A stretch of 64,000 bases of DNA from Cellvibrionaceae bacterium (lineage in GTDB: Bacteria > Pseudomonadota > Gammaproteobacteria > Pseudomonadales > Cellvibrionaceae): positions 125,393-189,392 of the forward strand of contig JBNKWZ010000008.1 in assembly GCA_050300015.1 (NCBI GenBank), written 5' to 3'. Under the pieces are notes generated by a model, which ran no database searches, was not told the origin of the DNA, and saw only the letters and a list, made by a program, of their open reading frames with translations. Made by a program: the position numbers and the translations under genes. Shown one piece after another: positions 6,003 to 31,517 of the stretch (position 1 is the stretch's first letter; each line of letters starts with the position of its first letter).

Positions 6003-6160
6003 CACCACATTCTTCTCATTTCCTACTGCGTTACCAACAAGTCAAGCCTAGACCAACCCCCTCCACCAAAACACCTCTATTACACACTTACTCACACATT
6101 GCAGGCAACTTACCCACACTCACCCCACACCCTTACCAACACCCATCACAAAACGCCAAG

Positions 6161-6169
6161 TTATCCACA
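6161..6169 (+). promoter_or_regulatory. Consensus DnaA box TTATCCACA inside a G-depleted non-coding tract (second box CTATCCACA at 6268-6276)
   Basis: Exact consensus 9-mer. One-mismatch copy 107 bp downstream. Confidence 0.5.
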
Positions 6170-6581
6170 CTTTTCAACAAGCTAACAACAAACTGCACAC
6201 AAGCTTTTACCTGTCTGTGCAAAACCCCTAACTTAACAACTGGACAAACTCTGTGTAGCCATAGAAGCTATCCACAATAATATTGATTGTTTTTTGTACT
6301 GCTTAATAACCCCCGTATTCATACACACCTCATACGCAATTACACAGCGCAAACAAAGCCCCAGTACATAAGTTTTTAGGCCAATAACACTTTGATTTAT
6401 ATACATTTTTTGGGATTACGCACAGATAGCGATTGAGACTATAGATTCAATATCTTTAAAACCTTTACAAATAAACACTATTTTCTTACATACCAAATGC
6501 TTTATTTTTAACTGAGAAAATTGATTTAAACTGATTAAAAAATCAACTAAACTAAGCCCATTCTCGGATAAAGGAAAAACC

Positions 6582-7145
6582 GTGCAGCAATTTTTTATTT
6601 CACAGGGACTTGCAGAGTGCATCCCTCAAGCAGTACAACCTGCACCTTCTCTCGCTACCGAAGTGCTGACTTGGTATGGCCATGTGGTTCCCACCAGTAG
6701 CGGTCAGTTTTTTGTGTTTATGGAGCACAGCACTCGATATTGCCTTGTCGTTCATGAAGACAACGTACCCGACCAATTTGAGCAAACCCAAATTGGCCGA
6801 ATGATTCAGTCATTTCTTACTCAATCCGTTATTGAGCTCACTGGCGTTAATGACAAAATTGGTAAACGAATCAGTGTATTGATGGATGAAATGTGCCAAA
6901 CTTCTCAGGTCAACGTGGGCTTGGATTACGCCATCAGCGCTGATTTATTCGATGTGGCTTGCCAGTTACAAATTGTGATTGAAGATTTGGGCAGTTATTC
7001 AGCAGAGACTTTAAGCGAGGTGAATCTCGCTTATCATTTGAACCAAAATTCTGAGCACGGGGCAGTAGCAGGTAGCACCCCACTTGATCGCTTTAAAAAA
7101 CTATGGGTTCAAAAACTGGGCCTAAATGTGGCGGCCAGTCACTGA
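6582..7145 (+). CDS. Hypothetical protein (187 aa) occupying the mnmE-mnmG junction
   Basis: GTG start 6 nt after a good Shine-Dalgarno AAGGA. No TM segments and no motif I recognise. Uninterrupted ORF flanked by non-coding sequence. Confidence 0.55.
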   Translation: MQQFFISQGLAECIPQAVQPAPSLATEVLTWYGHVVPTSSGQFFVFMEHSTRYCLVVHEDNVPDQFEQTQIGRMIQSFLTQSVIELTGVNDKIGKRISVLMDEMCQTSQVNVGLDYAISADLFDVACQLQIVIEDLGSYSAETLSEVNLAYHLNQNSEHGAVAGSTPLDRFKKLWVQKLGLNVAASH

Positions 7146-10605: not shown

Positions 10606-11520
10606 ATGACCAAACCTAAACGAAAAGGCCTGGGGCGCGGATTGGATGCCCTGTTAAGTACAAATTCTAGTCTTAATGCACCTCAAGGTGCTAATCACGC
10701 TGATGCCTCCTCACTTGACACCAAACCTAAAGATGGGATTTTGGCCGATTTGCCCATAGAGTTTTTGCAACGAGGAAAGTACCAGCCGAGAACCGATATG
10801 CAACAGGAATCCCTACAAGAGTTGGCGGATTCCATTAAAGCCCAAGGGGTGATGCAGCCGATTGTCGTGAGGCCGATCGGTGATCAAAAATACGAAATCA
10901 TTGCCGGTGAACGCCGTTGGCGAGCGAGCCAGTTGGCGGGACTTGATAAAATTCCTGCGGTGATTCGCGATGTGCCCGATGAGGCTGCCATTGCAATGGC
11001 GTTGATTGAAAATATTCAGCGTGAAGACCTGAATCCGGTTGAAGAGGCAGTGGCTTTAAAACGCTTACAGGAAGAATTTGAACTCACGCATCAGGAAGTG
11101 GCCACCGCTGTGGGTAAATCGCGTACTGCCGTGTCAAACACTTTACGCTTGTTAAATTTGTGCGCAGAAGTTCGCACCTTACTTGAGCATGGCGATATTG
11201 AAATGGGGCATGCACGGTCACTGTTAACTTTAGAGACGCAAGCCCAAAAATATTTGGCGAACACCGTTGTGGCCAAATCCCTATCAGTCCGTCAGACCGA
11301 GGCCTTGGTACGAAAATATCAAGCAGAAGAAAATAAACCCAAGCAAGCGCCGGTAAAAGAAAACGCCGATATCACCAAATTACAGGATGCCCTCTCAGAT
11401 AAAATTGGCGTACCCGTGATGGTGCAGCATTCTGCAAAGGGGTCGGGCAAGTTGGTTTTGAAATACAGTAACCTCGACGAGTTGGATGGTATTTTAAACC
11501 ACATGGGTTATGAGGCTTAA
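10606..11520 (+). CDS. parB: Chromosome partitioning protein ParB (Spo0J)
   Basis: 304 aa with ParB box IIAGERRWRAS and a helix-turn-helix region. Confidence 0.92.
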   Translation: MTKPKRKGLGRGLDALLSTNSSLNAPQGANHADASSLDTKPKDGILADLPIEFLQRGKYQPRTDMQQESLQELADSIKAQGVMQPIVVRPIGDQKYEIIAGERRWRASQLAGLDKIPAVIRDVPDEAAIAMALIENIQREDLNPVEEAVALKRLQEEFELTHQEVATAVGKSRTAVSNTLRLLNLCAEVRTLLEHGDIEMGHARSLLTLETQAQKYLANTVVAKSLSVRQTEALVRKYQAEENKPKQAPVKENADITKLQDALSDKIGVPVMVQHSAKGSGKLVLKYSNLDELDGILNHMGYEA

Positions 11521-11753
11521 GGTCTCTTCTAAAAATACATTTTATTGTAATAGCGGCACAAGCCCGGTCATCGAATCCTTACAAATTGGCAGGATAGCCA
11601 ATTAGCTAAGCTCAGTTGCCCGCGGGGCGAATCACAAGGAAGTGATTCATGATTTGCCCCTTGTAAACTTCGGTTCTCGGAAACTGCTCCGTGCGGTGTT
11701 ACTGCTTTCACGAAGAAACTTCCATTTTTATAAGTGTCCTTAAATAAAATCTT

Positions 11754-12557
11754 CTAAAAGTCTTTGCTAATTTGTAAACCAATGGAATAGGTTTCTAATT
11801 CTGTGTGCGGATGAAAAAACACGGCATCCAGTGTTTGACCATTGCGTGCTAGCCATACTGGGCGGCTTTGTTCAATTTCAGTAAATTCATAAATCAAATT
11901 CAAACCCATCATCCAGTCGTAGGGAAGTCTTTTCCCGATATAGAGATGACTCATTAGTGTGTAGTCCATACCTAGGTGAACATCTGAATCATCATAGACC
12001 TCTTCAAAGTCTACGGTCATATGAGATCGAAATGCCATCTTGGCGTTGAATTCAAAATCCACGCGAAATTGGTCGGTGTGAATGATGACTTGTTTGAACC
12101 CTACAAACCCTTGTCGTTGGTCTAAGTATTCATTCAGAGTACCACTCAGGTTATTTGCGCCAATATAGCGGTCTCGAGTATTCGCTTGATACCCTAAATA
12201 CACCACCGTGGTGACAAAGGATTTTCCAAAGATGTAATGGTCACTTTCCAGCTTATAGAAAGTTTGGGTTTTTATGGGTTGGCCTAATTGAGAATAACCT
12301 AGGTAGTCGACTTGATCGTTACCGGTATAATGCCCGTATTCAAAATAGTACTGATTTTGTTTTTGATACCCAATACTAAACCCCATAGTGGGGATGATGC
12401 CGGATTCTTCGTTAATTGCGAAGCCTTCATTCCACTCCACAAAGTTCACATAGTTTAATTGATTGTTTAATTCCAAAAATAATCCGTCGTACGCTTGCGC
12501 GTATGTGGACCAAGCTAAAAAAAATATAAGCAGTATATAGGCTAAAGTCATCAACAC
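11754..12557 (-). CDS. Putative outer-membrane beta-barrel protein (MipA/OmpV-like)
   Basis: 267 aa with a signal peptide (LLIFFLAWSTYAQA), alternating aromatic beta-strand pattern and C-terminal Phe. AT-rich composition relative to neighbours. Confidence 0.55.
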   Translation of the reverse strand: MLMTLAYILLIFFLAWSTYAQAYDGLFLELNNQLNYVNFVEWNEGFAINEESGIIPTMGFSIGYQKQNQYYFEYGHYTGNDQVDYLGYSQLGQPIKTQTFYKLESDHYIFGKSFVTTVVYLGYQANTRDRYIGANNLSGTLNEYLDQRQGFVGFKQVIIHTDQFRVDFEFNAKMAFRSHMTVDFEEVYDDSDVHLGMDYTLMSHLYIGKRLPYDWMMGLNLIYEFTEIEQSRPVWLARNGQTLDAVFFHPHTELETYSIGLQISKDF

Positions 12558-12588
12558 ACCAAACCTATTTCAAGAACCTGTGCGGCAC

Positions 12589-13614
12589 TTACAAAGCATC
12601 TACTGACAATTGACGTAGTGCCAAGTCGTACCACGTAGTGTACTGAACTTCATCAATAATATTATCTGCGCCATAATCCAAAAGTAGTTTGACGCTAGTG
12701 CCATCCAAAATATCAATAATCAAATTATCTGAACCACCATTGACTTTGATTACGCCAGAAACGGGTACGGAATAACCCACGCCCTGTAGAGGTTTGAGTG
12801 TTTCATACTCGATTAAGGTATCATTAAGAGTGAAGTCCACAAACTTTGAAACCATGTTGATTTGGTATTCCCCGGTTTGTGAATTGACCCACTTATGGGA
12901 TTGGAACTCGAGTGTTTGATAGGAAGTATCAGCTGCGTAATAAAGATCCTGTGCATAAATATCGGTATAAATGGTAATGCCATCTTGACTTTCCACTTGA
13001 TAATTCAATTGGCCGTTAATAACAAAAGGCAAAAAACCACTAAATGTGATGGCGAGTTGATTGACCTTAACTTGGCTGGTTATATTGTAGTTTTGCATGG
13101 TAAGCAACTGGTTTAACGCGGCATTAAACTCAATATCTAAAACGCCGTTGAGCGCCATATACCCTTGATTGCAATGACTGAATGAGGTGTTAAACGTCAT
13201 AGCCAAGGTTTCGTCAAAATTGATTTGAATGTTTTGGCCAGTACTGGTTAAGGAGGCCGCTACACCTACGTCACCATCATATAAACATTTAACGGGTAGC
13301 ATGGTGATCACCACGCCGGTGGCCATATCTACAATTTGTTGGTTTTGCTCGCGTATAATCGCTACGTTGGTATCCACTGCGGTAGTGCTAAAGTCGCTTA
13401 ACAAAACAGCCTTTAATGTGCTGCTAGCAACAGCATTGAAGTTTTCGCTGTTAAGTGAAATGGGCGATAAATTTTTACTGTTGGTTTTGTTGTAAACTTG
13501 TGTAATAGGTGTGGAGGTTGAGGCCACCTTTTTGGGCGCGCTCTGCTCACAAGCGCCAAGCAATACGATGTATGTGACGATAAACCCATAATGGATTAGC
13601 TGCGTAATACTCAT
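12589..13614 (-). CDS. Putative lipoprotein, N/Q/T/S-rich
   Basis: Start ATG at 13614 is preceded by GGAGAAAGG. Lipobox LLGAC, then a low-complexity polar beta-rich sequence. The track ORF extends to 13734, but the internal Met with an RBS is preferred. Confidence 0.6.
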   Translation of the reverse strand: MSITQLIHYGFIVTYIVLLGACEQSAPKKVASTSTPITQVYNKTNSKNLSPISLNSENFNAVASSTLKAVLLSDFSTTAVDTNVAIIREQNQQIVDMATGVVITMLPVKCLYDGDVGVAASLTSTGQNIQINFDETLAMTFNTSFSHCNQGYMALNGVLDIEFNAALNQLLTMQNYNITSQVKVNQLAITFSGFLPFVINGQLNYQVESQDGITIYTDIYAQDLYYAADTSYQTLEFQSHKWVNSQTGEYQINMVSKFVDFTLNDTLIEYETLKPLQGVGYSVPVSGVIKVNGGSDNLIIDILDGTSVKLLLDYGADNIIDEVQYTTWYDLALRQLSVDAL

Positions 13615-14520
13615 AACCTTTCTCCGATTCCTAACAACCTGGTGGTTTGTTAAGGCGCTATTTATCATTTTTATAATAGTGTTGTCGCTATATTCGAATA
13701 CAGCTTTTTGCCCTGAAGTGTTTAACTTTTGCAACGAAGTTAATGATCGATTGTTTGCCGTAATATTGATTGATCAGGCACACTCAACCCGCCCTATTTG
13801 CTGGCAGGCTTGCGCCTGAAGAGCAATGGGAGTACAAAAGACTTTTATCCTTTGGCCCAAAGCCGGGCTCAGACTGCTATTTAAGATGCATTGTTATAGG
13901 CTGGTGAAAGGACGCCAATGTGTAATATTTTGTGTATTGGGTATCGGCTTTCCGTCCAACTTGACTAAGACTGTTAAAGCGAGGATGGGTCAAAAAAGCC
14001 CAACCTGCCCTGCGGTGGTTTGTCAAATGAAACTGGATAACTTCAGTATAGAAAGCCATTGAAAAGAAAACCGTGTAAAGGTCACTGTTCGTCGGATTGT
14101 GTGGCACGAAAATCAACCCAAAAGGGGCCAACTCGTGAAATTGTGACTTAGGTATAAATTGTGAGTTATACGAAAGACCCATCATACAAAAGCCTTATAT
14201 CGAGAAGAATCCTATCTAAGCGAGTTACACCACAATTCCACCAAATGGCATTTGGTTAAATATTAACCAATATGCAATCCATCGTCAGTGGTTGAACCCT
14301 GAGCACTTTAAACCTATAATCGGCCTCGCCCTCCCACTGGGAATAAGATCATCTATTAAGGGCGCATTGAGTGTTGGAATTTTGACAGGTCTATTGGGGT
14401 TACCTCCTACCTGGAATGTCAGGCTGATACCGAGCCACTTTGATTTAGGGTTTGATGACGACTTCGCGGATGTTTTTATGATGACGCGAGAATCAGCCTT
14501 GCTCAATCTATGGTAATGGT

Positions 14521-31116: not shown

Positions 31117-31517
31117 TGGGCGATCGAGGAGCGTACTACATGACCGATGTTTTTAGATTATTTATGCATTAAAAATGAATCGAATTTCAACATAAGCATT
31201 TATACATTGCGTTTTGTATGAGTGGCGATGACATTGGCCCAAAATTGCGCTGAACACGTGCAAGGGTTTGTGTCGGCCATAAGTTTATCCAACCTTATAG
31301 CAAACGGTTATGGTGCAAGTTTTTGTGTATTTTACGGGCGTTGTTTTCAGGTTTGGCATCTTCTAAAGTATTTTTCCGTAAAGGCGCACTGAAATGATTT
31401 CAGTATTTGGCGTTGATACCAGGTGAAGAGTGGTTAACGCGGTAGAGTTTATGTGTATGGCTAATGTCTGTTAGCGATGTGTTTGTGATGTTGTACTTGT
31501 AACAAGGACTAAGGATT

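Follow-up and report, generated by a model that had tools for sequence, protein, structure and literature searches.

A lipoprotein and beta-barrel gene pair between parB and the atp operon in Cellvibrionaceae-like Gammaproteobacteria

Must a pair of low-GC genes on the opposite strand be foreign DNA when it lies in an origin region of textbook synteny, and what could its two products do together in the outer membrane? Here, we addressed both questions for a 64,000-nucleotide stretch of a Cellvibrionaceae genome (the window). The pair need not be foreign: it has been kept at the parB-atpI junction over deep divergence, and amino acid composition accounts for the dip in GC content. Furthermore, the pair defines two uncharacterized protein families that co-occur and diverge in step.

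The gene pair and its setting

The gene order, confirmed with Pfam, is rpmH-rnpA-yidD-yidC-mnmE-(DUF6933)-gidA-gidB-parA-parB-pair-atpIBEFHAGDC. In Pseudomonas aeruginosa, parB and atpI are adjacent (PA5562/PA5561), and the first-pass annotation had described two minus-strand genes that break this Pseudomonas-type adjacency. Indeed, the open reading frame list places a lipoprotein gene and a barrel gene between parB and atpI, both on the minus strand and opposite to all neighboring genes, and the flanking genes are assigned by Pfam. The features of the locus are as follows.

11521..11753: convergent spacer between the parB stop and the barrel stop, 233 bp (open reading frame coordinates and terminator scan)
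11754..12557, minus strand: outer-membrane beta-barrel gene, 267 aa, GTG start at 12557
12558..12588, minus strand: spacer between the lipoprotein stop and the barrel start, 31 nt
12589..13614, minus strand: lipoprotein gene, 341 aa (open reading frame, homologue alignments, and deposited annotation)
13615..14284, minus strand: region upstream of the pair, containing the open reading frame 13877-14185
14285..14410, plus strand: conserved non-coding block (promoter scan and nucleotide identity in relatives)

The NCBI record calls the barrel at 265 aa from an ATG at 12551. The longest reading of the lipoprotein gene begins with a TTG codon (12589-13734, 381 aa); the true start is the ATG at 13614, as indicated by all homologues, by the deposited annotation (the lipoprotein is a 100% match to P0007, annotated at 341 aa), and by a ribosome-binding site (GGAG, 6-9 nt upstream of the ATG). 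Hence, the span of 11754-13734 given earlier for the pair is right at its lower end and about 120 bp too long at its upper end.

Since the terminator scan found no terminator-like site in the 31-nt spacer, the two genes are likely to be co-transcribed. In the relatives, the order of lipoprotein and then barrel and the tight spacing are mostly kept (12-101 bp), with 332 bp in L010. The same scan gave no clear intrinsic terminator in the 233-bp spacer between parB and the barrel gene, and no parS site was found near the pair.

Inheritance or acquisition

The pair had been taken for a horizontally acquired module, and its higher A+T content compared to the flanks is real. The GC content of 11754-13734 is 0.403, compared to 0.486 for the window; among 1241 sliding windows of this length, only 2 have so low a value, and the pair makes up the lowest-GC 2 kb of the window. 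Homologues are very rare, with 6 and 3 matches among 5.8 billion proteins and only one matching GTDB species representative. Together with the opposite strand and the broken parB-atpI adjacency, this would fit a recently acquired AT-rich islet, brought in between parB and atpI by horizontal transfer in this genome or its close kin. However, such a recent islet is very improbable in light of codon usage, synonymous divergence, the junction in relatives, and the surroundings of the pair.

The CAI-like index of the two genes (0.72 and 0.71) lies within the range of the window (0.655-0.774), and their GC3 (0.43 and 0.44) is at the low end of the range of 0.426-0.62; a check of codon adaptation against core genes, proposed with the claim of acquisition, thus puts the pair inside the core range. 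GC1 and GC2, on the other hand, are the lowest in the window. The low GC content is therefore mainly a matter of amino acid composition (codon positions 1 and 2), and we infer that it has no foreign origin but follows from the N/Q/T/Y/F/I-rich makeup usual for such proteins. Among the relatives, the GC3 of the pair follows that of each host genome. At the level of sequence comparison, both are real genes under purifying selection, with dN/dS ratios of 0.107 (barrel) and 0.067 (lipoprotein), alongside 0.05-0.12 for parA, parB, and gidB. The dS of the barrel against its closest relative is on a par with that of the neighbors (0.52 and 0.37-0.46, respectively), which argues against a recent islet; the dS of the lipoprotein, by contrast, is 1.02, about twice that of the neighbors, and does not fit this picture.

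The junction itself speaks against recent transfer as well. In ten independent loci (the window/L001, L004, L005, L006/L007, L008, L010, L011, L012, L015, and L016), the pair has the same orientation and lies at the parB-atpI junction or adjoins parB at a contig end. Identity to the window across these loci is 69-95% for ParB, 24-90% for the barrel, and 34-87% for the lipoprotein, and the divergence of the pair scales with that of its flanks. Presence at this junction in relatives had been named beforehand as the observation that would speak against acquisition, and it is largely what we found: the pair sits there in every relative retrieved, each locus having been found via the pair itself. 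Furthermore, the 64-kb window contains no tRNA, and no integrase, transposase, or flanking direct repeats were found; the repeats seen are short pairs at chance level, and PHROG or PADLOC matches are absent. With the same junction in ten loci, a core-like codon index, and no mobility signatures, recent transfer is not supported.

We therefore favor, with about even confidence, a lineage-specific, old, and vertically inherited operon of Cellvibrionaceae-like Gammaproteobacteria that encodes two outer-membrane proteins working together. This still implies that the pair was inserted once, long ago, in the ancestor of the clade.

The two proteins and how they may work

That the upstream gene encodes a lipoprotein with the lipobox LLGAC is well founded. 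With a lipobox of the form [LVI][ASTVIG][GAS]C expected at the end of an N-terminal signal peptide, the protein has LLGAC at residues 18-22 of 341 (codons 13549-13563; ...IVLLGAC from residue 16), and the lipobox is kept, with an invariant Cys, in all 12 homologues that have their N terminus. The description as N/Q/T-rich also holds, these residues making up 23.7% of the protein compared to 15.1% of ParB. The lipidated Cys is directly followed by a tether of about 35 aa, which is variable and rich in S, T, N, P, and Q, and then by a conserved helix (NAxxVAxSxLKAxLLSD); C-terminal of the helix are two invariant cysteines (C110 and C148), and the C-terminal part is beta-rich, contains a DYGxDxxxD motif, and ends in TWxDL. 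Residues +2 to +4 would bear on outer- versus inner-membrane sorting; at +2, the window protein has E, most homologues have G or S, and the L010 protein has D. The family has no detectable relatives: the lipoprotein matched nothing in Pfam, NCBIfam, PADLOC, PHROGs, or PDB sequences, and a Pfam scan of 13 relatives gave no family match beyond a weak one to LPAM_1 in a single homologue. An AF2 model from a 3-sequence alignment reached a pLDDT of only 33.7. An internal duplication was rejected on the basis of hhalign of the thirds of the protein (probability of 0.3%).

The downstream gene had been read as a beta-barrel outer-membrane protein ending in Phe, and this reading stands. A signal peptide (...STYA/QA) leaves a mature protein of 246 residues, the model is a closed antiparallel barrel, and the C terminus carries an aromatic beta-signal (...SKDF; Phe codon at 11757-11759). 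In the AF2 prediction, the whole mature protein forms a 10-stranded barrel, in which the strands are long and the loops short; one of the five models is confident (78.8), and the others are at 43-52. The family comprises about 95 clusters at 50% identity. In an alignment of 42 members (the window protein and 41 relatives), conservation is 0.47 in the loops versus 0.21 in the periplasmic turns and 0.45 in the outer versus 0.32 in the inner halves of the strands. Invariant residues are E41, E51, G53, G87, R130, I132, E143, and P250, the first seven of which all lie near the outer tips of the modeled barrel. The residues conserved family-wide are polar, mostly lumen facing, and clustered at one rim, the predicted extracellular one, on the side away from the termini; in the model, those of the rim are mostly acidic or polar. 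PF13505 (OMP_b-brl, clan MBB) matches 9 of the 42 aligned members (best E value of 5e-9), the window protein not being among them; the latter has no match in Pfam, NCBIfam, PADLOC, or PHROGs, and searches of PDB sequences with four profiles gave nothing significant.

At the level of the fold, the family resembles OpcA and the omptins and is set apart by its unusually conserved outer rim. The 10-stranded fold of the model is shared with OpcA, an adhesin/invasin of Neisseria meningitidis (PDB 1k24 and 2vdf), although sequence identity is only 9-11%, the OpcA family PF07239 matches neither the window barrel nor its 41 relatives, and the profile reaches only an E value of 0.058 against 1k24. OpcA functions by means of long extracellular loops, which shape a basic ligand-binding crevice, whereas the outer-side connections of the window barrel are 2-6 residues long and its rim is acidic and conserved, according to the one confident model. 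Unlike the window barrel, OpcA is not encoded together with a partner lipoprotein. Identity to Porin I ("major outer membrane protein"), which is associated with the Legionella Dot/Icm machine (PDB 9nh1), is 7-10%, and the window has no type IV secretion context.

The omptins (OmpT and Pla) are about 30 residues longer than the window barrel. The window barrel could itself be an enzyme of the outer membrane, for example, a hydrolase similar to omptins or an enzyme that modifies lipids or LPS. The conserved acidic/Arg/Tyr cluster of its extracellular rim would then be the active site, and the lipoprotein would act as substrate, cofactor, or regulator. The conserved acidic rim would be equally compatible with catalysis. 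However, the omptin family PF01278 matches neither the window barrel nor its relatives, and neither does any enzyme family; there is no family-wide conserved His and no conserved Asp-His pair, the Asp-Asp/Asp-His arrangement of omptins being absent, and conserved polar residues facing the lumen also fill small non-catalytic barrels. We thus regard an enzyme as unlikely.

A lipoprotein gene directly followed by an outer-membrane barrel gene, as in the window, is also found with Slam and TbpB/TbpA. Slam (DUF560, type 11 secretion) consists of a 14-stranded barrel and an N-terminal periplasmic TPR domain, and the TbpA-type partners are 22-stranded TonB-dependent transporters. The adhesin or surface-lipoprotein translocon suggested in the first-pass annotation is speculative: the window barrel lacks the long loops of OpcA, and it was rejected as a Slam/DUF560 translocon, since it has no DUF560 or TPR match, 10 strands, and no extra domain. 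In the interlocked RcsF-OMP complexes, a lipoprotein with a disordered N-terminal tether is assembled together with a small or medium-sized beta-barrel (PMC4942254). The variable tether of the window lipoprotein, about 35 residues long, likewise comes right behind the lipidated Cys. The two lipoproteins are unrelated in sequence, and the partners of RcsF are general porins and OmpA, not a dedicated neighboring barrel.

For the operon that we favor, these features could be combined as follows. The lipoprotein would be sorted by Lol and would consist of a long flexible tether and a beta-rich body with a disulfide bond and possibly a loop that binds Ca2+. The other protein would be a small 10-stranded barrel of the OpcA/omptin fold that is inserted by BAM. 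Embedded in the membrane, the barrel may dock or display the lipoprotein, in which case its conserved outer rim would be an interface as opposed to a free variable surface, and the putative complex could have a cell-surface or envelope role, for example, in binding or adhesion.

Do the two proteins belong together at all? They might be independent envelope proteins that merely share a transcript, that is, a periplasm-facing lipoprotein and a generic structural or small-solute barrel without specific interaction. Consistent with this, distant lipoprotein homologues occur without a neighboring barrel (in L018 and L020; a metagenome scan added only three distant lipoprotein loci), and small OMP_b-brl proteins often stand alone. 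However, adjacency and order are kept while barrel identity falls from 90% to about 23%, and they hold at two genomic positions: in the more distant L017, the lipoprotein gene again precedes the barrel gene at a site away from parB, and the upstream protein matches the lipoprotein profile with an E value of 5e-17. Both proteins diverge much faster than the neighboring genes, and they do so in step with each other; their pairwise identities correlate with a Spearman coefficient of 0.86, compared to 0.63-0.70 for either protein versus ParB (the pairs being phylogenetically non-independent). The conserved outer rim of the barrel would also need explaining if the proteins were independent, and we consider their independence doubtful.

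A bolder version of the joint function is a long shot. The pair could be a dedicated and previously unrecognized outer-membrane display system, in which the conserved extracellular rim or the lumen of the barrel holds or threads the cognate lipoprotein and presents it at the cell surface. This route would be neither that of Slam, nor an interlocking with general porins of the BAM/RcsF type, nor one that uses the lipoprotein export signal of Bacteroidota. The system would have become fixed beside the chromosome partition genes, at a distance of about 10 kb from oriC, in a marine lineage that resembles Cellvibrionaceae. If the two proteins do form a dedicated complex, they would offer a small and tractable model for the docking or display of lipoproteins by outer-membrane barrels. 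As things stand, there is nothing extraordinary about this hypothetical outer-membrane operon, and its evolutionary story is clean.

The spacer toward atpI

Between the pair and atpI, a non-coding gap of 790 bp had been described. Its size is about right (786 bp by the longest open reading frames and approximately 906-940 bp with corrected starts), but it is not empty, since it holds a conserved promoter block. The open reading frame 13877-14185 (minus strand; 101 aa in the deposited record and 102 aa as the longest frame) is probably not a gene, judging from the comparison with L005, in which nucleotide identity (76% over 96 nt) exceeds amino acid identity (40% over 47 aa). It has no match in L006 or L010 and none in Pfam, PADLOC, or PHROGs. 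A 74-aa open reading frame over the promoter block (14292-14516, plus strand) was rejected as coding because of 1-nt indels, which also make the block 14285..14410 non-coding, and it has no Pfam match. A structured RNA in the block was rejected, there being no Rfam match and no covarying pairs.

A sigma-70-like promoter, TTGAAC-17 nt-TATAAT, lies at 14292-14320 (10/12 in the promoter scan), with about 90 nt of conserved leader behind it. Nucleotide identity of the block is 75-82% in L005, L006, and L010, and the promoter part is also kept in L015 and L016. Most likely, the block is the promoter and leader of the atp operon and belongs to that operon rather than to the pair. All six loci that include both flanking genes have a long divergent spacer at this place, with a length of about 0.8-1.3 kb.

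Gene models and conservation of the junction

The gene order in the window is rpmH, rnpA, yidD, yidC, mnmE, a DUF6933-like ORF, gidA, gidB, parA, parB, the pair, atpI and the rest of the atp operon. The pair consists of two minus-strand ORFs placed directly after parB and before atpI.

Features of the parB-atpI region and rpmH (positions in the window)
2114-2248: rpmH
10606-11520: parB
11754-12557, minus strand: barrel ORF, 267 aa (265 aa in the deposited annotation), with an N-terminal signal sequence and Phe as the last residue
12589-13614, minus strand: lipoprotein gene, 341 aa from ATG 13614, lipobox LLGAC at residues 18-22
14285-14410, plus strand: conserved non-coding block of about 125 bp upstream of atpI
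About 14521/14554-14961, plus strand: atpI; the remainder of the atp operon is also on the plus strand

Both ORFs, the lipobox and the terminal Phe are as described in the first-pass annotation, but the upper coordinate of the lipoprotein gene is 13614 and not 13734. The reading 12589-13734 is an over-extended ORF, since the start at ATG 13614 is supported by all homologues, by the deposited record and by a GGAG ribosome-binding site. No promoter of the pair was identified in the stretch upstream of the lipoprotein gene.

Direct searches of 5.8 billion proteins returned just 6 homologues of the barrel and 3 of the lipoprotein, the latter number rising to 7 with a profile search. For the barrel, an exhaustive HMMER profile search of 1.84 billion representatives yielded 95 relatives (E ≤ 1e-3), most of them 20 to 28% identical and 265 to 290 aa long. 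Among GTDB species representatives, one was matched, an uncultured Cellvibrionaceae MAG. Genomic context was obtained for 11 independent barrel homologues, every locus having been found via the pair itself. Ten of the 11 loci (the window's own, L001, and L004, L005, L006/L007, L008, L010, L011, L012, L015 and L016) share one arrangement: parA-parB is followed by the barrel and lipoprotein genes in opposite orientation, which a long spacer separates from atpI; some lie on contigs that end early, and there the order is present as far as the contig covers. Over these ten loci, identity to the window is 69 to 95% for ParB, 24 to 90% for the barrel and 34 to 87% for the lipoprotein. In the eleventh locus, L017, the barrel (about 23 to 25% identical) lies among signalling genes, away from parB, and directly upstream of it is a 328-aa lipoprotein that matches the lipoprotein profile (E = 5e-17). 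Since L017 keeps both genes, the two-gene module is conserved as a unit in two genomic positions.

The two genes are separated by 31 nt, and a terminator scan found no terminator-like site in this spacer. That they encode two independent envelope proteins sharing one transcript is rather unlikely in our view; from one pair of loci to the next, barrel identity tracks lipoprotein identity with a Spearman coefficient of 0.86, compared with 0.63 to 0.70 for either against ParB, in pairs that are not phylogenetically independent. More distant lipoprotein homologues in two further loci, L018 and L020, have no adjoining barrel, and in L020 the barrel may have been lost. A short ORF beside the stand-alone homologue (L020, 4268-4483) has a translation that resembles, by eye, the C-terminal end of a transposase; the expected place of the barrel gene is otherwise non-coding.

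Composition, divergence and the question of transfer

The pair had been proposed to be an AT-rich, horizontally acquired surface module. Indeed, the GC content of 11754-13734 is 0.403 compared to 0.486 for the window, and just 2 of 1,241 equal-length sliding windows are as low. The deficit lies in codon positions 1 and 2 (GC1, 0.474 for the barrel and 0.450 for the lipoprotein; GC2, 0.291 and 0.333), and N, Q, T, Y, F and I are abundant in both proteins. GC3 (0.429 and 0.444, respectively) is at the low end of the window range of 0.426 to 0.62 and tracks the local genome in each relative (0.595 and 0.498 in the GC-richer L005). The codon-adaptation index, built from the window's other 44 ORFs, is 0.724 and 0.708, within the range of 0.655 to 0.774. 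The AT-richness is real, yet, with GC3 and the index both inside the window range, there is no foreign codon-usage signature.

Against the closest relative, L008, dN/dS is 0.107 for the barrel and 0.067 for the lipoprotein, with values of 0.060 for parB, 0.051 for parA and 0.123 for gidB. The dS of the barrel (0.52) matches that of its neighbors (0.37 to 0.46). Despite its low dN/dS, the lipoprotein has a dS of 1.02 (12589-13614 versus L008 3-839), roughly double the 0.37 to 0.52 of the barrel and flanking genes; noise, mutational bias or local recombination may explain the excess. Around the pair there is no tRNA gene, integrase or transposase and no flanking repeat of note, and neither protein matched a defence-system or phage family. 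The overall picture is of real genes that are inherited together with their flanks and evolve fast, as is common among envelope proteins. A recent acquisition by horizontal transfer, to which the AT-richness had pointed, is highly improbable: comparison of the parB-atpI junction in relatives places the pair there in ten loci, all found via the pair, with ParB identity down to 69%, codon usage is core-like, the barrel dS is like that of its neighbors, and mobility genes are lacking. Compared with the Pseudomonas gene order, the insertion is an ancient one.

The two proteins and their putative complex

The lipoprotein, alone or as a profile, matched nothing in Pfam, NCBIfam or PDB sequences and contains no internal repeat; it is an unannotated family whose relatives are undetectable in these databases. 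In a 13-sequence alignment, a low-complexity, variable tether of ~35 residues links the lipobox to a conserved amphipathic helix; two invariant cysteines (C110 and C148) come after the helix, and then a beta-rich body. The cysteines probably form a disulfide, which would imply a non-cytoplasmic, folded domain. The C-terminal region reads GxGxxxPxxG...D(Y/L)GxDxxxD...TWxDL, and we take its Asp-rich loop to resemble DxDxDG-type Ca2+ sites.

For the barrel, one of five AF2 models built from a 7-sequence alignment was confident (pLDDT 78.8, pTM 0.72; the other four, 43 to 52). It has long strands and short connections, and the predicted fold is 10-stranded, of the OpcA/omptin type. The signal peptide, the terminal Phe and alternating polar and hydrophobic strand faces agree with it, and PF13505 matches 9 of 42 aligned members (the window protein and 41 relatives). 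The fold is common to OpcA and the omptins. By sequence, the barrel belongs to neither family; it represents a new, unannotated family inside a well-known fold class. The omptin catalytic pattern is absent. We assign a low probability to the reading that the barrel is an omptin-like enzyme of the outer membrane and the lipoprotein its substrate or cofactor.

In the 42-sequence alignment, conservation is concentrated opposite the termini. Provided that the termini face the periplasm, as they do in every known outer-membrane barrel, the conserved side must be extracellular. Conservation is 0.47 in the outer-side connections versus 0.21 in the periplasmic turns, and 0.45 in the outer strand halves versus 0.32 in the inner halves. 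Nearly all invariant or near-invariant residues (E41, N49, E51, G53, Y85, G87, Q90, G92, R130, I132, L141, E143, D189, S231 and P250) lie no more than about ten residues from the outer tips, and the majority have the lumen-facing parity. In ordinary porins and adhesins, the outer rim is the most variable place. The conserved rim points to a partner interface, or to a catalytic or ion-binding site.

We propose, as the likeliest reading, that the pair forms a two-protein outer-membrane complex, in which the tethered lipoprotein would have the small barrel as its partner in the membrane and would be docked or displayed via the conserved rim, in a cell-surface or envelope role. The chances of this mechanistic part are about even; our confidence in the descriptive part is much higher. 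Lipoprotein-barrel pairs as such are already known, for example, Slam, TbpBA and LptDE. RcsF/OMP is a further pairing (PMC4942254). Here, both protein families are unannotated, and a dedicated small-barrel display mechanism for the lipoprotein, which we regard as very unlikely, would raise the interest of the finding if demonstrated.

The spacer before atpI and the replication origin

The gap to atpI, described before as 790 bp and non-coding, is long indeed, but it measures about 0.9 kb with corrected starts and holds the conserved block 14285-14410. It is similarly long (about 0.8 to 1.3 kb) in all six of the loci that span both flanks. The block has 75 to 82% nucleotide identity in L005, L006 and L010, where ParB is about 76 to 81% identical as protein, and its first ~57 nt are also kept in L015 and L016. 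It opens with TTGAAC-17-TATAAT on the atp strand (14292-14320, 10 of 12 matches), followed by a conserved leader, CGCCCxCCC...GGG...GGGCG and then ...GACAGGTCTATTGGGGT. A coding function is excluded by 1-nt indels, and a search of the block for structured RNA gave no Rfam match and no covarying pair. We interpret the block as the probable promoter of the atp operon together with its 5' leader. The ORF at 13877-14185 (minus strand) in the divergent spacer, a hypothetical protein of 101 aa in the deposited record and 102 aa as the longest ORF, has similarity in L005 only, with nucleotide identity (76%) above amino-acid identity (40%); it is probably spurious, a conserved non-coding patch being likelier than a gene.

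DnaA-box matches (33 in the whole window versus 15 expected) cluster at 1729-1909, upstream of rpmH, which is the Pseudomonas-type oriC position, and at 6110-6276 in the mnmE-gidA spacer. Together with a GC skew that is positive toward the right of the window, they place the origin to the left, so that replication would meet transcription of the pair head-on, at a distance of roughly 10 kb from the origin. No parS-like site (TGTTNCACGTGNAACA, up to 2 mismatches, positions 1-64000) is found near parAB; the sole match in the window, at 31489, is at chance level. The mnmE-gidA spacer is AT-rich (at 6200-6599 the GC content is 0.33), and the GC skew is strongly negative there. Between mnmE and gidA, the gene order departs a second time from the Pseudomonas type through the 187-aa ORF 6582-7145 (plus strand), which has a weak DUF6933 match (E = 1.8e-4); a 209-aa DUF6933 gene is at the same position in L012.
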